A model generated the notes under the pieces. That model did no database searches and was not told the origin of the DNA. It saw only the letters and a program-made list of their open reading frames with translations. This document shows positions 41,001-64,000 of a stretch of DNA of 64,000 nt, piece after piece; positions within the stretch are counted from its first letter, which is position 1, and every line of letters begins with the position of its first letter. The position numbers and the translations under genes are program-made. The stretch is from Hydrolagus colliei. Taxonomy: Eukaryota. The DNA lies in assembly GCA_035084275.1 (NCBI GenBank), contig CM068756.1, positions 6,324,001 through 6,388,000 of the forward strand. Direction: 5' to 3'.

Positions 41001-44000
41001 ATCCGGCACAGTCAATTAGTCGACCCTCCCCTGGAGGGTGCCGGATAAACGGTTTTTACTGTACAAAGTTTCTGGGCTTCAATCTTAGTAGACTAGACTA
41101 ATCAGCAAAAGACCTGTTTTTAACTAAAGGAAAACAATTGTTTTCCATTTTACAAACTACCAAGCAAATGTGCCCATTTCAAATAGAGATTGGGAGAAAA
41201 AAACACGCCATAATTGTATCTCATCTTTCAAAACCCAAAGTTTCCAACTTCTTTTTGACTTAGATAGAATAGAATCACAGACAAATTGTATATTTTTTAT
41301 AGCAATGTCAGCATTAGCAAACAGTAATGTGTATTGTAAACATAACGTTGTATTCAACCTGTTCACTAGCCTTTTATTACTGCAATATTAAGACACTGTA
41401 TGCGCATTCTTTTCTGTATCAAACTAATACAGGTTTCAGTTAATATCTAACAGGAGCTTGTGTGCAATTATTTTATCTCCATCCATTGCGGTTATTTAGA
41501 TTTATCCTGAAATTCCATGCTGTGGAGCAATTTTATTGTCACATTCAATTCAAAGCTCAAACCAAGCAGGAATTGGCACTTCACGTTTTTCAAAATAGTC
41601 AAGTTGATTTATAATGCATTTAAAATATATATATTATATATAAGTATTTTTTCTTGCAGCAACTGATCTTTGAATCTTGTGGAAATTTTGGTAACAGGAA
41701 ATTGAATGTAGTTGTAAATGTCTGCATTTGACTTTACAAGCAGTAGAGTACCTGAACAGAAAAACAGATATAAACTTGCATATGAATACGTACTCAAATT
41801 GTACATTTTTTAATCAATTACTGACTGATCAGCTCTACAAGGGAAACTGGAGTTTGCATTGGCTTAAAATTTACATATGGATTTGAAAATAAACTCTGAA
41901 CTGAAAAACAATCCCATTCAAGCTTTGAAAAACCTTAATTGACAATTTGACATTGCCAGCTCAAAATTATTTTGGAGGAATGGGATGGAAAATGTCAGAA
42001 AGTAATAAAGATTTGACAGGTTGGTTCTAGTTTGATTATAAAGTCTTGTAAACGTAGAGCAACAGTAAACATAGACCAACAGATAAATGTCAGTTCAAAG
42101 GCTGTAATTCAATCAAGGCATTCAGATGACGTCATAAATCACAACAGCAAAAGCTCAAGTGATTTGTGATCTGAAATATGAACCCACTGATATGATTAAA
42201 ACCTTTAATTCATCCCTTAGTATTTTACTTAGTACAGTCTATGCCTAATTTTTTAAAAGGGAGTTTCTTTACTGATGGCCCTTGGGGTAGTGAAGTGTGG
42301 CTGATGGCTGTGACAGCACAACAAATCTGGTATTCATCTGCTGAAGAATAGCTGTGTAGTGTGCTGGCTTTAATAGTACTGCAATTTCTCTGGAAGTTTA
42401 TGCTGTACAAAATACAACTTTGAAAACATTGAGCGTACACATAGGTGTTGATTTCTTCAGTTACTGATCCATGAATTAACATCCACAATTCCCCACTCAC
42501 TGAGCCACCAATGAGCCACCGAGTGACTCAGGAGTTTACTATGGGGAGATCAAACCTCATTCAATTCTAATGCACCTCTGTGGCAAAAGCCTCAGAGCAT
42601 TTAGTGCATGGTATGAGAGTCTCAAATGCTGAAGGGAGCAGAAATTATATTTACTGTGGGTCCTTAGAGAGTTTTGACAAACATATGCTCACAGGTTTCA
42701 CATTACTAAACAAATTAAAGACGGAACCTGAAATAGTAAGGATAAAGAAGAATACTGATTACTAAAAAAAAGCTCAGGACACAGGAACATTCCACACTGC
42801 TCTCAGATATTACTTAACCAGATATCAGCACAGGAATTTTAGAAACTAGATAATCTAGCAGAAAGTGGGGACAGTAAGTATTTTATGTCGCAACCTCCAT
42901 TACAGCACAACACGGTTCCTTTGATCAAGCCAAAAATCTCTATGGAGGTTTATTCCTTAAGGTTAGACATTCTTCAGCCACTTTGGAATATGCCTGTTTT
43001 AGCAGAACTCAAAACTTAAACCCATTCACATTATATTACCTAAGCATAGAATTTTCCCAACTTTATTCCAAACAGTGGCTTTTAAAAGCACCGCTGCTAA
43101 AATCAGTTAATGAAACTACAGTAAAAGCCCGTTTATACGGCACCCGCGGAACCTGGCCAATGCCGGTTAAAGCGCCTGCCGCATATTCGTGCAGCCCGCG
43201 GCCAAAAACCCACCACAAAAAAATTTAAGTTCTTTTAACACACACCATACACACCAGACTAAATAATAACAGAATATTGTATTGGTACTTATTGTTAAAA
43301 CTATTCTCTTGTGCTTCTCACCTTTACTGATTGAGGTTTACAGTCCAGCGATTCTTTTTAAAATGGAGCACGCCAAAAGGGTGAAAAAAACAGAGCGTGA
43401 CTTTAAAGCCTTACTAGCGGCAAACTGATAACCCTATACTCTACTAGCGGCAAACCGAAATACTGCACCAGCGTGACAGTGTGGGTTACCAACGAGCGTT
43501 ATCGGCTTGCCGCTAGTAAGGATTTAAAACTGCACTCCGTTTTTTTCACCCGCTTGGTGTGTCCTCCATTTTAAAAATAATCGCTGGACTATAAACCTCA
43601 ACCGCAGCATCATGGCTTCAAGCGCAGCATCTACTAGTAAAGGTGAGAATCGCAAGAGAGTAGTTTTAACAATAACAATATTCTGTTACTATCTGTTATT
43701 ATTTATGCATCTACAAATGCTCCACTGCTATTGTTCCAGCTAAGTTCCGGTTTATCGAATGGGGACTTTTTGTTGACGTGCCGGTTATAAAGTGTCGATT
43801 CATCAAGTCACGGATAAACAGGCTTCTACTGTATATGGACCCAAATCTACAGTACCAATATGAATCATTTCAAGTCCTTCACAACTATTATATAACAAGA
43901 TCAACCAGATTAAAAGAGAAACTCGAACAGGGAATATGGATGTGCAGTGAATTCCACCTTGGGGTCTCAATTCAAATCCAACCTCGTGTGAAATAATAGG

Positions 44001-56000: not shown

Positions 56001-57974
56001 TGTTATTGTATCAATAGATTTTTTTAAACTAGATTGTCATTGATTGATACAATATCTCGTATGTGTAAAGGCCTAAAGTACAATATGCACATTTGCAAAT
56101 GTTCCATAAATATCCAGCCAGAGGGGCCACAATGATCTTTTCTGGTGTTGTCCATCCCCTTCAATCATACAAATTTGGAAATTATTAAACTTTGTTCATA
56201 AACAAAAGCTTTTTTGAAACTGAATAATCTTTTCATTTTCAAATTACTGTACTATACTGCTTGCACATGTGATTTAAATTGATTTCTCATTGTTCTGAAA
56301 CAGTTACATGAAAGGAAACCTTTTATCACACCTAAAGTTTTTTTCCTGAATGGATTTTATTATTTCCTCCAGTCCCAGTGACATGTCTGTCTCATATTTC
56401 TGCCAATACCTCCAGGAGCACTGGAAGAACCACCAGAAACAGTTCATCTGTTCTCCCTACCTTGCTATGATGAAGTGGCTATCCAAATACCTTCAGGTTA
56501 GTCCAATAGTATAATAGGCTCAGTCTGATATCATATTGACATTCAATCTGAATAGGACTACTGCAATTTCTCAGATTATTTCGGGGGAAAGGGGAAGAGC
56601 TCTATGACATTAAAAGTATGGTAACACATATGGTAAATCGGAACATTAGACTGAAAACAAAATGTTGTTGAGCTTTTATCTTCAGAATTAAATGCAATTT
56701 TAATCTGAAGATTTCAATTTTGTATTTCTATTAAAGTCCCACCATCAGCCTCTAGGGAGCGCCAATGCACAGTGTTGAACCATCGTGGTATTCTTAACAA
56801 TGTCCTGATGGTTACTGTAAACCCCATTGATAAGAAAACCGACAATAGTATGAAGGTAGAGTTCATAATCTCCCAATGCCTTGGTTTAATGCTGTTTTCC
56901 TTTCATAGCAACTCTTTAAGTACAAGAAACACGATGGTCAGCTAAAACCAGTTTTATCTAGGCAACATTTAAAGTTTGCACGATTTTGGATCTCATGAAA
57001 AATGTTCTCCTTGCTGTGCAAATATGATAACGCACAATCTGCTCTACTAGTTGGGCATTCACTAGTTAAATTGAAGAAGAAATGCAATGTTAATAACAGA
57101 TAACACAGAGGAATTTAACTCAGGTTTTAAATTGCAATACTAACACGCTTCATAGACTCCTAGCCAAAGATAACTGAAAAAAAGTCAAAAATGTATTTTT
57201 TATTTTTAAGTTTACGTGATTCTTCACAATTTCCCTTGCAAGTTTAAGTGTTTTAATCCGCGTTTACGATATTGAACAAAAAAGGTCTCTGTTGAATTAT
57301 TGTTAAAACTCATTAACTTTGAACTATTAATGCGGATTTTTAACACTAGTAATTGTTTAGATGTTCTGATTTGTTTGGGGGTAAAACATTGTTGTGTTAC
57401 TCGCTGGGTGGGTGGGGGGGGGTCTATCCAATGACTGAAGGGAAGTACTAAAACCATTTTAAACAGAACGGCCCCGCGGTGTGGGAAGTTTACTGTTTCA
57501 CCTACAATTCGGAACCTCGCAAAACGTTTAACGTCAGACTCTCCACTCTTTGTACATTTGTTTGTGTGTGTGTGTGTGGGGGGGGGTGGGGGGGGGGGGA
57601 CTGACGACGATGGAAAGTTTAAAGAATTTAAGGATTGGACAAGTCCTTGAGTACAAGGAAGGAGCATATACTCGACTGTGTTTGGTGGGGGGGGGGATAA
57701 TTCCAGACAGTAAAGAGACATTAATTAGAACTGGTTCACGGCGTCGCGTTTCCGTTTAAAGCGCCACTGCTCCAACTCCAGGCGTTTGCTTTGAACTCAG
57801 GGTCCCCCGGGTGCAACGGCTCCATTCGTTCCTTCTTCCAACCCTCGGCCTGCCAGACCAGACCGCCTGTTAACTGACTCGCTTTACCTTGCCGTGCTCT
57901 TCCCCGAGTCGGGCCACTTGATGCGAGCGAAGCGCGTTGCCGGCGAGGGGCTGCTGCTTCTGCGAGTCCGCCAT
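37823..57974 (-). CDS. URI1: URI1, unconventional prefoldin RPB5 interactor 1 (11 coding exons, 521 aa; whole-gene span)
   Basis: Manual splice reconstruction: exon lengths 87+35+79+136+92+76+181+292+149+244+195 = 1566 nt, all GT-AG, open frame. Recognisable alpha-prefoldin domain (MVPFGPLAFMPGQLVHTNEVTVLLGDNWF), EELWARLDELE segment, acidic tract, RKSILKSRSRENSVCSDTSES and C-terminal KRVSKFKAAR (URI box). Confidence 0.97.
38172..38246. repeat. Short imperfect tandem repeat (gctaaacagctagtactaaaRgta, ~3 copies) in URI1 intron 10
   Basis: Directly visible repeated ~23-24 bp unit. Confidence 0.75.
38632..38875 (-). CDS. URI1: URI1 exon 10 (MFVDVVNGEYIPRKSILKSRSRENSVCSDTSESS...PGLFE)
   Basis: 244 nt, gtag|AATGTT...TTGAG|gtgaga; follows a 118 nt intron. 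Confidence 0.96.
38994..39142 (-). CDS. URI1: URI1 exon 9 (VRINTGRNTTLKFSEKKEVAKRKRRNS...LPNIKSPTDIYR)
   Basis: 149 nt, tcag|GTAAGA...TATCG|gtattt; basic NLS-like KRKRR. Confidence 0.95.
40107..40398 (-). CDS. URI1: URI1 exon 8 (TSDTVDGNSGENSSSEDEQ...DDNDDDDVPTILFTHTMEPKR)
   Basis: 292 nt, tcag|AACGTC...AAAAGG|gtaagt; acidic tract followed by PTILFTHTMEPKR. Confidence 0.92.
40655..41061. mobile_element. Tc1/mariner (pogo/Tigger-like) MITE
   Basis: TA-flanked; ends CAGTAAAAGTCAGTATATCCG ... CGGATAAACGGTTTTTACTG. Confidence 0.85.
43119..43831. mobile_element. Tc1/mariner (pogo/Tigger-like) MITE with long internal inverted repeat
   Basis: TA-flanked; ends CAGTAAAAGCCCGTTTAT ... ATAAACAGGCTTCTACTG. 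Confidence 0.9.
44570..44750 (-). CDS. URI1: URI1 exon 7 (GKCRKAHK...EEELWARLDELETQEKIQDEIDR)
   Basis: 181 nt, gcag|GAAAAT...GACAG|gtaaat; matches ORF-track 44566..44796. Confidence 0.94.
45233..45630 (+). mobile_element. L2-clade LINE 3' fragment in URI1 intron 6
   Basis: KALHGL motif, then cagcgccttgggacatcctcccgatatgaaaagcgctatacaagtgtaattttgctgttgtt tail. Confidence 0.88.
46050..46125 (-). CDS. URI1: URI1 exon 6 (KSKEIVEIHEEIQNEDLKPEDLSSQ)
   Basis: 76 nt, atag|AAAAGT...ACAAG|gtattg; IVEIHEEI resembles IVDIREEI; phases fit both neighbours. Confidence 0.88.
46225..46322 (+). mobile_element. SINE 3' part in URI1 intron 5
   Basis: tgtgaagagccttgagatgtctcagcgacatgataaggcgttatatcaaatgcagagattattatt. 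Confidence 0.75.
46861..46952 (-). CDS. URI1: URI1 exon 5 (HVQKALDDLHKVVKNFESRVKFIEDLQNVAD)
   Basis: 92 nt, tcag|ATGTAC...GCTGAT|gtatgt. Confidence 0.95.
49595..50016 (+). mobile_element. L2-clade LINE 3' fragment in URI1 intron 4
   Basis: cattggtttccccatcattcagaggattcaa...ctccatggccttgcccaaccctacctctgtgacctc is near-identical to 25214-25310; same tail. Confidence 0.88.
50211..50346 (-). CDS. URI1: URI1 exon 4 (VPFGPLAFMPGQLVHTNEVTVLLGDNWFAKCSAKQAADLVEHRKK)
   Basis: 136 nt, atag|GTGCCA...AAGC|gtaagt; alpha-prefoldin beta-hairpin signature. Confidence 0.97.
51399..52160. mobile_element. Tc1/mariner (Tc2-like) non-autonomous element spanning an assembly gap
   Basis: TA-flanked; TIR CYGTAAATACCCGCGTATARGGCGCAC at both ends; subterminal repeat of GCGTATARGGCGCAC; GC-rich interior partly N. 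Confidence 0.88.
51521..51908. other. Assembly gap
   Basis: Run of N. Confidence 1.
52410..52624. mobile_element. Short copy of the same MITE family (opposite orientation to 43119-43831)
   Basis: TA-flanked; CAGTAAAAGCCTGTTTATC ... GATAAACGGGCTTTTACTG; shares acctggccaatgccggttaaagcgc (reverse complement) with the 43119 copy. Confidence 0.9.
53325..53403 (-). CDS. URI1: URI1 exon 3 (NKVQSDYEALQERLKTLPDKLSYDVM)
   Basis: 79 nt, ttag|GAAT...TTATG|gtaggt; prefoldin helix. Confidence 0.95.
55188..55222 (-). CDS. URI1: URI1 exon 2 (VVSSCTEKIQHW)
   Basis: 35 nt, acag|GTAGTT...CATTG|gtaagt. Confidence 0.93.
55940..56005 (+). mobile_element. L2 3' tail fragment
   Basis: tgccttgggacgtcttcccgacgtgaaaggcacactataaatgtaattttgttgtt. 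Confidence 0.78.
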
Positions 57975-58400
57975 CTCCTCGCAAGCGGCGTGTGTCTGTC
58001 TGTGACTGACTGACTGTGTCTCCCTCTCTCTCTCTCTCTCTCCCCGCGAGGGGCGGAGGGGGGGAGACACACACCAAAGAAAAAATCACCTCAACAACTG
58101 CGAGTCCTAAAGAAATGTTTATGGAGGTGATCACTGCAGCCCCGGAGCTCCTGACTCCTCGTACACATAGAGGGAGCAATTGACGTTGTCATCCAGGCGG
58201 TCGGGGCGGAACACATTTCACACTCGCATTATTCCCGCTTCAGCCCCAACGGTTCGAACCAAAGCTCCGCTCGCTCTCAGCACCGCCAGCAGCTCGGCGC
58301 CATCTTGCTCTCTCTCGCTGAGCATTCTGGGAGGGCAACACAAGGCACCACAACAAGCGGCCAGACAGACAGCAGCAGCTCCAGCCTCACTCAGCCACAG
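57450..58400 (-). promoter_or_regulatory. CpG-rich promoter/first-exon region of URI1
   Basis: CpG-dense against an AT-rich background; GC box GGGGCGG (~58203), TGACGT (~58181), YY1-like AAGATGGCG (~58298-58306, minus), (GA)n tract upstream of the ATG. Confidence 0.7.
57888..57974 (-). CDS. URI1: URI1 coding exon 1 (MADSQKQQPLAGNALRSHQVARLGEEHGK)
   Basis: ATG in gagATGG context; ends AAG|gtaaag, phase 0; VARLGEEHGK resembles the VARLREEQEK end of mammalian URI1 exon 1; CpG-rich setting. Confidence 0.9.
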
Positions 58401-58537
58401 CACAGGCAACCAACACACTAGCCACAGGCAACCAGCACACTAGCCACAGGCAAACAACACACTAGCCACAGGCAACCAACACACTAGCCACAGGCAACCA
58501 ACACACTAGCCACAGGCAACCAACACAGTAGTCACAG
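58401..58537. repeat. 22 bp minisatellite, ~6 units (left arm)
   Basis: Unit gcaaccaRcacactagccacag; ctag at 58418, 58440, 58462, 58484, 58506, then a degenerate sixth unit. Confidence 0.95.
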
Positions 58538-58630
58538 TGTATTTCCCCCCTATTACAATGAGCAACAATTGGCAAGCTAAGGATCTTCAGTATTTAGAGA
58601 AGCACAACTCAGATGTAACCTTATAGATGT

Positions 58631-58750
58631 ACAACAACAACAAAATTACATTTATAGAGCGCCATGTCGGGAGGATGTCCCAAGGCGCTGAACAGCTAGG
58701 TCGGGGCCGAGCAGGGACGGATGGGTTGGGGTAGCAGCAGGGGGAAGGAG
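58631..58750 (-). mobile_element. L2 3' tail fragment in the inverted-repeat spacer
   Basis: acaacaacaacaaaattacatttatagagcgccatgtcgggaggatgtcccaaggcgctg. Confidence 0.78.
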
Positions 58751-58866
58751 AGTAGGAAACATTTTGAATGGAGCTGAAAAGCCAAATTCAGAACAATGCT
58801 TTAGAAGCGTTTCTCAAACAAGTGATAAGGCGCAAAGGATGCAAAGGATTCATATTATGTATCACT

Positions 58867-58950
58867 AAATAATAATAATCCTTGCATTTGATATAGCGCT
58901 TTTCACATCTTCTAGACGTCTCAAAGGATTTAGGATTCACAACTGTAAAA
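58867..58950 (-). mobile_element. SINE 3' tail in the inverted-repeat spacer
   Basis: aataataataatccttgcatttgatatagcgcttttcacatcttctagacgtctcaaag. Confidence 0.75.
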
Positions 58951-59254
58951 CAAGAGGCAATAATTGGTTTAAAGTGGCAAAGGACAGACACCACAAATCA
59001 CAGAATGATACAGCACTGAAGGAGGCCATTCGGCACATCATGTCTGTGCCAGCTCTTTGAAAAGAGCTATTGAAAGTCAATGAAGTTTTTCTTTAGCAGA
59101 AGAGCAAATAATTAATGACTCGGGTGGGGCGAAGGGGGGGGACAGACAGATTCCTAGGAAGAGTGCCAGAGGCAAGGACAACTGGACACTTAGTTTTAAA
59201 AATATATATATACCAGTATTTAAAAAGTTTGAGTGACAAGAGGCTGGTGTTGTG

Positions 59255-59457
59255 CTGTGGCTAGTGTGCTGGTTGCCTGTGGCTAGTGTGCTGGTTGCCT
59301 GTGGCTAGTGTGCTGGTTGCCTGTGGCTAGTGTGTTGGTTGCCTGTGGCTAGTGTGCTGGTTGCCTGTGGCTAGTGTGTTGGTTGCCTGTGGCTAGTGTG
59401 TTGGTTGCCTGTGGCTAGTGTGCTGGTTGCCTGTGGCTAGTGTGTTGGTTGCCTGTG
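59255..59457. repeat. 22 bp minisatellite, 9 units (right arm, reverse complement of the left array)
   Basis: Unit ctgtggctagtgtgYtggttgc; ctag every 22 nt from 59261 to 59437. Confidence 0.96.
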
Positions 59458-60260
59458 CTGTGGCTGAGTGAGGCTGGAGCTGCTGCTGTCTGTCTGGCCG
59501 CTTGTTGTGGTGCCTTGTGTTGCCCTCCCAGAATGCTCAGCGAGAGAGAGCAAGATGGCGCCGAGCTGCTGGCGGTGCTGAGAGCGAGCGGAGCTTTGGT
59601 TCGAACCGTTGGGGCTGAAGCGGGAATAATGCGAGTGTGAAATGTGTTCCGCCCCGACCGCCTGGATGACAACGTCAATTGCTCCCTCTATGTGTACGAG
59701 GAGTCAGGAGCTCCGGGGCTGCAGTGATCACCTCCATAAACATTTCTTTAGGACTCGCAGTTGTTGAGGTGATTTTTTCTTTGGTGTGTGTCTCCCCCCC
59801 TCCGCCCCTCGCGGGGAGAGAGAGAGAGAGAGAGGGAGACACAGTCAGTGAGTCACAGACAGACACACGCCGCTTGCGAGGAGATGGCGGACTCGCAGAA
59901 GCAGCAGCCCCTCGCCGGCAACGCGCTTCGCTCGCATCAAGTGGCCCGACTCGGGGAAGAGCACGGCAAGGTAAAAGTGGTCCCTCGCTCGAGTCCGAAT
60001 TGGTACTCGTTGCCTTCCAACATTTTGGCCTTGTGCAAACAAAACCCGTGTAAAGAGTGAGACGGTCGCCCGACATTTGAAAGTTTTGCATCGAGTTTTA
60101 CGAGGTTCCGATTTGCAGATCCTATCAAAATATCGTAGCCGCGAATTAATTCCCCAGTCCCTTTAAAGCGTTGACGTGAAATCTATTGGTTGAGCGGCTT
60201 CTAGCCATTGAGCAGTGGCGTTTGGGTGTGTCCAGAGTTCAGAGAAAGTACGAGAAGGCG
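59458..60260 (+). promoter_or_regulatory. Mirror-image CpG-rich promoter region of the duplicated exon 1
   Basis: Same motifs in the opposite orientation; CpGs continue past the donor to ~60260. Confidence 0.6.
59884..59970 (+). other. Second, inverted copy of URI1 coding exon 1 (identical 29 codons, intact AAG|gtaaaa donor); function unknown
   Basis: Same translation as 57974-57888; no URI1 exon-2-like sequence found on + up to 64000. Confidence 0.85.
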
Positions 60261-61924
60261 GTTCGTTATCCAGGCAACTCCCAGACATTTTCACAAACCT
60301 TCCCCTTGTATAGAGAGGGAAGGGAAAATAAATTAAAACAGAGGGGTTACATGTCAGAATTTGATCATCTTTCTCCTCCCATCCCCTAGGCTACCACCCC
60401 CAACTCGGTTCTCCTAGTTGAAAAGTGTAAATGTAAATTTGTATTCAACTTTTCGTAATTACAGCTTTGTAATTTTTTCTAAAGTGAAATCTGAACCTAA
60501 TCCATTCACTAATTACTTGCCAAGTCTTTTTAGATTGGCACTGGATTTAATCAGACAGATATACATATGTGTCTGATACGTGTAAATTGGAGCTATGTTT
60601 GTGCTTTCAAATACAAAGCAACAAGCAACATAAATCTGATTTAAACCAGATTCAAATGGCTTCTGCTTGTTAAACAGTTTCGTGTTTTCACAAATGTGGT
60701 GGGCATTTTCTGAATACTCATACTAACTCCCAAAACAAATTGGTGAGATGGGTGGGGTGGGGGGTTGTTTGACATTTCCAGTTATGAACAAGACAAATTA
60801 ATCATTGCATATAGTTCTTCAGCCATACATTGGCCCTGCATGAGTGTGCGTGTGTGTATGTATATATATATATATATATATATCCACACACATACACTGT
60901 CTATCAATTGGAATTATGATGCCATATGGAGTGTAGAATTTTTACCAGGAATAGAATCTGCTGTTGGAACAGGTGTTCATTGTGAATGAGTGGATGGTCA
61001 ATGGTGATCATTAGGATTTATGCTTGTACATAAATCAGTTATGTTGCCAAGTGCCACATTAAATTTTGTGTTGCTGCCACTAAGTTTCTGTGCTCTATCA
61101 TCTGACATGAGGCTTTAAAACCAGATCAAAAGTGGCTCTTTGTATGACACCCCATTTAATCAAGGCTTCTAGCATCTGCTTAAAACTATCGTGTAATCCC
61201 AAATTTGTCCCGACTTTAGATTCTGCATAGTGTGCATTCTACAATGATCTTCACCAACTTTGGGTGCCATATTTTAATTTAAGAATCAAAGAGCTGGCCC
61301 TTTCCCTGAATTCCCAACTTGTATATTTTACCAGTGACTTGTACTTTACTGTACTCTATCCCTTACCAATAATTCAGTTCCACAATGCATGTCAAAAAAG
61401 CTGTAAAATATACTTAAATTCCATACAATTTCCAATGTTTAATTTGAATGATTCTTTCACCATGTGTTGGAAATTGTTGTTTCTGATGCATATTGAATCA
61501 AACATAATCTCAATACTTGTTCACAAAAAATATTCAAGCTTACCAAAATGTTCAGGCTTCAAATCTCAGTTTGTAATAAAAAATATACATTTCTTCATGA
61601 AGTAAATAGAATGGCCATTTGATCTTAAAGATTCCAACACTAGTTGTTCAGTATCAATTTACTGTACTGAGCATAAATTATTACTTGCGAGGGTTTTTAA
61701 AAAATGCATTTACTTCTCTATTTTGACTATTTTCATGCATGTTTGCCAGGTAAACTTAAGTTGTGGTGGCCAAGTTATGCCTAAATAGCGCCTGCTGCTG
61801 TCAACAGAAGTATTTAACATAACAAAAGCCTTATTGAAAGAACAGCTGCTGGTGCAGTTTAAGTTGGAAGCCTACATCAGTGTGCCTATGGGGAGGAGCT
61901 TTCTCCAAAACTGATGATTTGATG

Positions 61925-62227
61925 ATAATAATAATCTTACATTTGATAAGTGTTTTTCATGTCTTTTAGATGTCTCAAAGCGCTTCACAGAATATACTGT
62001 AAAGTTAATTGACTGTATGTGGGCGAAACGCGGAAACCAATTGTGCACAGCAGTGTCCTGCAAAATCATGGATTGAAATGACCAATTTATTATTGTGGGT
62101 TTTTTTTGGAAGTTTATTAGGTGTGTGGAGTAAGGAAACTTGCCCCAAGTTTCGCCCTGACCTGCTTAGATTCGAACACAGGTCTAACACTTGCAAGGCA
62201 ACTGCTCTAACCACTGAGCTATAGGCC
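61925..62227 (-). mobile_element. Near full-length tRNA-derived SINE with L2-like 3' tail (DeuSINE-like)
   Basis: Minus strand begins ggcctaTAGCTCAGTGGttagagca (A box) ... GTTCGAATC (B box); body ctgtgcacaattggtttccgcgtttcgccc; tail tgtgaagcgctttgagacatct...(att)n. Confidence 0.85.
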
Positions 62228-64000
62228 TCCATAAACATTAGTACTGTACTATTAAAGTACTGTTTAGAAGCTGAGATGTGGTCATCACATTTACCTAACA
62301 AGCAGAAATGAGCAAATATGGTGAATTACAAACCATATCAATTTGGATTCCCTTCTCTTACCCCTATATTGTGATATTTTAATGCCAACCTGGATCAGTT
62401 GGCAGTACTCTCACCTGAGTTAGCTTATGCACCATGTCAGGACTTTGAACTCAGTCTAGGCTTATAATACAGTGCTGGGAAGCACTTCTCTTCCCTCCTC
62501 GCACTTGGTAGACTTCCCAATTTACTTCTGAGCCCAATTGGCTGCCATGTTTTGCACACATATTAGTGAATTTACTTCTCAGTATATTCTGTGAAGCATT
62601 TTGAGACCCCTCGAAGATGTGATACAAATGCAAGCATTATTCATGGAATGAATTCCTGAAGTAGGCCAAGCATCTTCAAACTGGGACAAAATCCTGCTGA
62701 ACCTTCATGTGGCCCATTTATCTCCTCTTTCTCACATACACACACATATATATATAATATGTAAAATCTAAAAAGCACGATTCAAAGTAATCAAGACTAA
62801 CATCCAACATGTTGGTTAAATCTAATAGAAATATTGCACTTATATTGACATCATATTGACTTGATCAACTGTCCATCTTATTTTTTCAAAAATCCAATTC
62901 AAAGCTGTCCTTCCTTTTATTGTTCCTCCTCAAAACAATTCATAATATAATTGAAGTTACAAAAATCTTTATTTCCTACTTCCATATTCTGAAGTAGTCA
63001 AAAAGACATCTATTAACTAGGAAAGAAAGTTCACAACACTCAAATCCTATGGGGAAAAATGCCTAATTATATCACATGTTCCAGCTTAGCAACTGCACAA
63101 ATCCAGTTACTTGATCTCTTCTACACAGATGGAGTCCAAGAGGCATGCATAAATTGAGTAAGAATTAAATTTTAACAGCTGCTATAGTGCAATCTGTTTT
63201 CAGTACAAGGTTGAATGGAATGTTCGCAAGATGCAAGTATTTATTGCAAGGAGTGAATGTGAAAGACTTCATATATTGAGCAACAAGATGCTTCATTTAC
63301 AGTAGTTTGAAACTTGTCAGAAAGACTTGTTTAGAATTAAAGGCAAGGGCAAATGTTATAATTCCAACTATATAAATAAGAGCACTGGAAGTACAGGAAT
63401 CATAAATTCAGGTATATGAAATTGAAATCAGATGTTTTATCACAAATGAAAGTAAAGCTCGGTTTCACTTTCTGAGAGACAATCTTGACTTGAATATGCT
63501 TAAAGCAGAGCAATTTAAGATAACCCAATCAAAGATTAACCAGGTCAGCATTTCCTCAAAAACAAGTATAAAGCTACTTGTGTGAAAATTGATTGAACAG
63601 TTGGTAAGAGTATTATCTTCATTTATAGTTTGTCAGTTTTTAAATGAGAAACAAGCTTCAAATAGTGATTTCATATCACTGAACCATCAAGGTGAGGTTT
63701 TACTGTACTTTCAGGCAACATCCAGTGCACAGGAGCATCACTCATGATTGCTCACTGTGGTATATATGCCTGCTGATATCAAATCTTTAAAAAAAATGCT
63801 GAGGTGATAGATGATTGTACCTCAAATAGAACTTCGAATTGTCCTTCAGAACATATTATGGTCACTCCATTTTCTATGAGAGAACCAGTTATAGCCATTA
63901 ATTTATGATAACAGTATGTAGAATTTCCAATTTAGCACTCTGAACCATCTTCAAAGATGTGTGGCATCAAGTAATTGCTCAATTGAAACTTTATCTACAA

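Follow-up and report, generated by a model that had tools for sequence, protein, structure and literature searches.

An inverted copy of the URI1 promoter and first exon, apparently old and homogenised by gene conversion, beside URI1 in Hydrolagus colliei

A 64,000-nucleotide stretch of the 1.0-Gb Hydrolagus colliei genome (contig C23, 6324001-6388000; the window) carries the 5' end of the URI1 gene twice. The intact gene lies on the minus strand (37826-57974), and an inverted copy of its upstream region, its exon 1 and the first 5 bases of its intron is found to its right on the plus strand (59321-59975). With about even confidence, the second arm is read as a passive promoter copy that is maintained by gene conversion and may fire a short, unstable non-coding RNA. 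Selection for a function need not be invoked to account for it. An earlier note on this DNA had described an unknown rightward transcript starting with a borrowed URI1 exon 1. The "transcript" in its title is an inference and not an observation, and two of the options it offered, a long non-coding RNA (lncRNA) and a dead copy, are not separated by sequence alone.

The inverted repeat and its read support

The two arms form an inverted repeat of 655 nt (57883-58537 and 59321-59975), with a separation of 783 nt and five differences. The left arm, on the minus strand, is the genuine URI1 promoter region and exon 1, as identified by alignment and by the URI1 protein match. The right arm was recognised by alignment and by read depth. 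Four of the five differences fall within a 22-nt minisatellite at the inner ends, which has 6.2 copies in the left arm (58401-58537) and 9.2 copies on the right (59255-59457, plus strand), where it extends the inner end of the arm leftward to about 59255. Elsewhere the arms differ at one of 518 bases. The spacer (58538-59254) contains short fragments of high-copy repeats, and no homology was found between its inner flanks. The lone difference outside the minisatellite is located at 59850 (58008 in the left arm), about 34 nt upstream of the ATG. It would permit the assignment of reads to one arm, although the reads compared below leave this base uncovered, and it gives the right arm what we take to be a perfect AP-1 consensus heptamer.

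The coding part of exon 1 (29 codons) is copied at 59884-59970 on the plus strand, equal to 57974-57888 on the minus strand, and is followed by a GT donor in phase 0. The earlier note had stated that the copy keeps the ATG context and a phase-0 donor, and the ATG and the donor at 59970 were confirmed. This donor agrees with URI1's own at eight of nine positions. Both donors match six of nine positions of the U1 consensus, this match being the sole measure of strength. The identity of the arms ends 5 nt beyond the donor.

Of 45 matches in a whole-genome search with the arm, two are these copies, and the remaining 43 are short and fall on a GA repeat. The flank at 59976-60800 is unique save for one 53-nt match. 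In 664 kb (the window with 200 kb upstream and 400 kb downstream), ten sequence pairs are at least 95% identical over at least 150 nt, and the URI1 arms are the only pair closer than 26 kb. No look-alike of the structure was found among the other scanned genomes. For annotation, it should be noted that short reads and 5' ends from URI1 exon 1 map to two places.

The duplication is no assembly artefact, because the arm occurs at double depth in the reads of two samples. The reads of four runs were compared over 57000-61000. In sample X1, the arm contigs have depths of 51.9 and 49.7, against 24.8-31.1 for the unique pieces; in sample X4, the same values are 66.4 and 63.7 against 34.2-39.5. Contigs of both samples break off at the edge of the arm, and the arm is also reached from each unique flank, so that an assembly fold-back was rejected on depth and junctions alike. 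The listed pieces of X1 show zero differences from the window. X1 may thus be the source sample, which leaves X4, a separate sample and study of the same organism, as the independent witness. X4 differs from the window at 8 of 2002 bases over six unique pieces (0.4%). A further organism (C, run X12) has no read depth over exon 1 in either arm, a gap that speaks neither for nor against the copy.

Age of the copy and probable conversion between its arms

The copy looks old and homogenised by arm-to-arm conversion. Three lines of evidence together favour this reading: an arm junction shared with a related species (B) at a low divergence between the arms, a trace of URI1 intron 1 beyond the right arm, and an extra glutamine codon. 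A contig of B is colinear with the window over 59874-60121 and spans the outer junction of the right arm. In six unique pieces, after the exclusion of two pieces with arm sequence, 33 of 1184 flanking bases of B depart from the window (2.8%). The divergence between the two arms is 0.2%, below the divergence of these flanks. If the duplication predates the split and the right arm alone has drifted neutrally since, about 7 differences would be expected, and the Poisson probability of finding at most one is 0.006. In B, 60118-60366 appears inverted and 4 nt appear inserted at 58128, but both changes lie at GATC sites and were rejected as ligation products of the library.

Beyond the homogenised tract, a decayed homologue of URI1 intron 1 is present at 60036-60120 on the plus strand. 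It aligns with 57564-57500 of the minus strand in the expected orientation, and 49 of 63 aligned bases agree. None of 2624 genomic 500-mers attained its score of 2101. After the removal of simple repeats the score is 2107, which was reached by none of 3000 Markov shuffles. Among 17 tiles deeper in intron 1, only the block just described and a shared repeat stood out. The distance from the donor to the homologous block differs by about 260 nt between the intron copies.

At the protein level, both arms encode K-Q-Q-P where Callorhinchus has K-R-P, and the extra Gln codon is missing from the right copy of B. This fits a later insertion that was copied to both arms, or equally a loss in the copy of B.

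Coding readings, promoter features and competing explanations

The copy is not a URI1 paralogue. The earlier note had proposed one that would continue past the window, and this proposal is refuted. URI1 exon 4 has a single match in the whole genome. When the window and a further 200 kb were searched by tblastn with URI1 proteins of three chondrichthyans, exon 1 alone was found on the plus strand, and a URI1 profile (homologues longer than 400 aa) gave no plus-strand match. Over the 664 kb, Callorhinchus milii URI1 matches on this strand only exon 1, together with a chance-level upstream match (E 3.9), and no URI1 exon after exon 1 was found on the plus strand within 404 kb downstream. Up to 27 kb past the window, the plus-strand scores for remnants of exons 2, 3 and 4 (1278, 1326 and 1522) are about those of the opposite-strand control (1215, 1363 and 1504), in line with the earlier failure to see exon-2-like sequence within 4 kb. 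In URI1 itself, exon 2 is found at 55222-55188, so intron 1 measures 2665 nt, as the previous estimate of about 2.7 kb had it. A paralogue past the window or an assembly fold-back has only the identity of exon 1 in its favour. With the single-copy exon 4, the absence of later exons in 404 kb, the doubled depth and both junctions in two samples against them, these two readings retain next to no probability.

A coding chimera, also suggested earlier, is unlikely because the next plus-strand genes have start codons of their own. These genes are a member of the BtpA family (PF03437; L011:8301 to L012:4743), head to head with a cyclin gene and sharing its CpG island, and a tandem pair with two coding exons each (L013:7417-8933 and L014:1726-3570), presumably C19orf12-like. 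As far as 27 kb beyond the window, the plus strand has 116 open frames of at least 48 aa, and the three with a clear Pfam match are all BtpA; the scan covered frames of this size, so small exons could escape it. The BtpA-family gene begins at L011:8301 with an ATG exon of its own. It has at least six coding exons, and its acceptors are in phase 1 at exon 2 and in phase 0 at exon 3. No gene without its own first exon was found to the right of the copy.

Coding use would mean either the peptide read from the unspliced copy, or a transcript in which exon 1 skips the cyclin gene and joins, in frame, the phase-0 exon 3 of the BtpA-family gene, 13.5 kb away. The intact ATG context and donor and the phase of this acceptor speak for it. 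However, such a fusion would cost the BtpA-family protein, which has an ATG exon already, its first 51 residues. The first coding acceptors of the two C19orf12-like genes, 10 and 20 nt before their own ATGs, are out of frame with the phase-0 donor. In B, moreover, a 1-nt insertion at 59959 (depth 122, one contig) shifts the borrowed frame, which is therefore not conserved, and alters both the tail of the unspliced open reading frame (ORF) and the phase of the donor. No such protein turned up in the protein searches. A coding role for the copy is unlikely, and the two forms named here are highly improbable.

The unspliced ORF comprises 58 aa and a stop (59884-60060, plus strand). Its first 29 residues are the URI1 N-terminus, a statement of the earlier note that translation and the minus-strand match bear out. 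The match to URI1 reaches residue 31 because the two residues after codon 29 also agree. The ORF matches no Pfam family and is absent from the protein collection, and no credible homologue of it, its tail included, was found among longer proteins or among those of similar length. Five phmmer matches to residues 18-50, with 6-9 matched stretches each, were rejected as chance; the one that was aligned, a tandem-repeat protein, matches weakly in seven places of 20 residues. Three further long frames over the arm gave no credible Pfam match (one weak, E 0.054). Folding of the putative leader (59530-59970) is no stronger than that of shuffled sequences (z 0.93). In Rfam, the region 57000-64000 has 14 matches, and the gathering score is reached only by a tRNA-like piece at 62157-62228. 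This piece, on the minus strand, is the tRNA-like head of a short interspersed repeat (RF00005, 32.8 bits).

Some sequence features speak indirectly for transcription from the copy. The right arm and the URI1 side have in common what we take to be YY1-type, GC-box and CRE-type motifs. Beyond the homogenised tract, a tail of 300 nt (59976-60275, plus strand) retains 21 CpG, with an observed/expected ratio (o/e) of 1.21 against 0.18 in 60576-64000. At least 21 CpG are found in only 12 of 2205 tiles of 300 nt in the 664 kb, mostly at gene starts. Since the tail lies outside the converted tract, the CpG has been kept there on its own. This suggests a long-standing lack of germline methylation and hints at an unmethylated promoter. 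The first poly(A)-signal hexamers on the plus strand (60327-60337) start at 60327 (canonical) and 60332 (a common variant). They follow the copied donor by 356 and 361 nt, compared with 630 and 683 nt in URI1 intron 1, and mark a candidate end for an unspliced RNA. Within the arm there are six upstream ATGs, so the position of the start site matters for URI1 translation. A 35-aa upstream ORF (59533-59640 on the plus strand and 58218-58325 on the minus strand) is in the frame of the URI1 ATG and stops before it; an element that we assume to be a YY1-type motif adjoins it.

To the right of the copy, the cyclin gene is encoded on the minus strand (L011:750-7560). From its sequence and its adjacency to URI1 we take it to be cyclin E, and E1 by synteny. 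Its poly(A) hexamer (L011:343-338) is located about 4.4 kb past the copied donor. A rightward RNA from the copy would consequently converge on the 3' end of cyclin E, in keeping with the earlier guess from mammalian synteny that it would run antisense towards CCNE1. Canonical poly(A) hexamers occur before this 3' end at 60327, 61575 and 64169.

The following course of events is proposed for the passive promoter copy. An inverted duplication would have taken the URI1 5' end and some 380 nt or more of intron 1, and the intron part would later have decayed. The closely spaced arms would then overwrite each other, so that the right arm follows whatever sequence is retained by selection in the left one. 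Conversion would halt 5 nt past the donor, beside the length difference of the intron copies. With an identical promoter in a CpG-retaining setting, the same factors may be bound and Pol II loaded rightwards. The RNA would most likely end at the hexamers 60327-60337, because no partner exon is nearby, and would then be turned over.

Several observations weigh against this account. The end of the tract just past the donor could indicate selection on the copy, and CpG retention can result from adjoining a CpG island, without transcription. The evidence from B comes from one contig of one run, with very uneven depth and a library of restriction-ligation type, and the left exon 1 of B is not covered. 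If both arms evolve at the rate of the promoter piece (3 of 347 bases, B against the window), a single difference in 518 bases does not depart significantly from what is expected without conversion (P = 0.06). The homology to intron 1 extends over few bases. Its best genomic control scores 2100 against 2101, a first test gave a z of about 2, and the signal is absent in one of five scoring schemes (501 of 1000 shuffles). In addition, 58 of 542 unmasked left-side genomic controls are at or above its score, and 2 of 36 controls exceed it with 4.4-kb targets. A recent duplication without conversion would draw on this dependence on the scoring and on the 99% identity of the arms. The likeness beyond the arm would then be chance, and the B contig would reflect a shared or very young ancestry. 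Such an origin is very unlikely. B has exactly this junction although its flanks have diverged by 2.8%, the arms differ no more than alleles do, and the intron homology has the position and orientation that are expected of it.

The copy, equally old and converted, may also be a silent passenger from which no RNA worth measuring arises, either since the promoter needs outside elements or since it is repressed. Conversion alone would account for the identity of the arms. The frameshifted copy of B seems to be drifting from exon 1, and the right flank of B has diverged from the window at close to the neutral rate, with 6 of 249 and 9 of 290 bases changed. Silence is nevertheless somewhat unlikely given the 518 nt of promoter and exon that are identical save for one base and the CpG kept in the non-converted tail. 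Unlikely, too, is a selected regulatory unit, in which the copy would be kept since rightward transcription or its RNA controls the neighbourhood. It might intercept polymerases that read through the poly(A) site of cyclin E and protect the promoter of URI1, which lies 6 kb downstream of that site. It might instead be a twin promoter with an enhancer-like effect, or yield a spliced lncRNA antisense to the 3' end of cyclin E. The spared donor with the tract ending 5 nt beyond it, a donor intact in B despite the broken frame, the long persistence of the copy, its CpG and its fitting geometry with cyclin E would all agree with such a role. Yet purifying selection on the left copy and a large indel nearby can set the boundary passively, three canonical poly(A) hexamers would have to be passed before the cyclin E 3' end, and the flank shows no extra conservation against B. 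Furthermore, in the available part of a study on human tandem genes less than 2 kb apart, the avoidance of interference is not the main force (PMC8972054). In its boldest form, the copy would be a self-updating mirror promoter, kept through chimaera evolution exactly to the 5' splice site. Tuned by conversion, it would fire whenever URI1 does, and convergent transcription would block cyclin E read-through, or a spliced antisense RNA would trim its output. This is quite unlikely.

As a passive promoter copy, the locus would be a small and clean case of concerted evolution with one gene-less arm, bearing on the minimum repeat length and on where conversion tracts end. If functional, it would show how the 6 kb between URI1 and cyclin E, both of them growth genes, could come to hold a co-regulated non-coding promoter.

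Known systems and neighbouring genes

The general pattern of conversion-homogenised inverted arms is already known. A promoter upstream transcript (PROMPT) or upstream antisense RNA (uaRNA) is a short unstable RNA that leaves a promoter away from the gene and ends at an early poly(A) signal. Unlike these, an RNA starting outward at the URI1 locus would come from a complete second sense promoter that is followed by a first exon and a 5' splice site of its own. A looser parallel is human BRCA1, whose neighbour NBR2 is non-coding. The BRCA1 5' duplication (the BRCA1 pseudogene and NBR2), as described in the accessible part of the report, is likewise a partial one that takes in a promoter and first exons beside the parent gene, with NBR2 as neighbour (PMC8268747). 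According to the same text, that copy is tens of kb off, more than 80% identical and a deletion hot spot, whereas the URI1 copy is inverted, less than 1 kb away and 99% identical.

In Caenorhabditis, inverted repeats between divergent paralogues have been described, and gene conversion was proposed for them (PMC1803023). As far as the consulted sections of that paper go, they resemble the URI1 arms in their back-to-back arrangement, short spacer, sharing between species and greater likeness within a species. Both of their arms, however, contain whole paralogous genes (PMC1803023). The second URI1 arm ends 5 nt past exon 1, without a gene body. The palindromes of mammalian X and Y chromosomes also combine arms of more than 99% identity, kept by conversion, with a unique spacer (bioRxiv 10.1101/800185, PMC3723533, PMC8327919). 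In the parts of these sources that were available, they exceed 10 kb and hold complete, often testis-expressed genes, in contrast to the URI1 arm with its 0.65 kb and a housekeeping promoter. A literature search, mostly outside the subscription journals, found no paper on this locus.

The intact URI1 gene has 11 coding exons, which were aligned by means of the full-length URI1 of C. milii. Exon 4 is 96-98% identical to C. milii URI1, and exon 1 shows several residue differences. The N-terminus contains L-G-E-E-H, the holocephalan form, where the sharks and rays compared have L-R-E-E-H. An imperfect, hairpin-like inverted repeat in a URI1 intron (43263-43692, about 66% over 430 nt) is probably a non-autonomous DNA transposon.

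Farther right, frames like PLEKHF1 (L015), POP4-region exons (L019) and UQCRFS1 (L027), as we would name them, follow what we take to be the order of the mammalian 19q12 block. In the promoter shared by cyclin E and the BtpA-family gene, a unit of about 30 nt is repeated in three tandem copies (L011:7830-7930). It holds what is presumably an NRF1-like motif.

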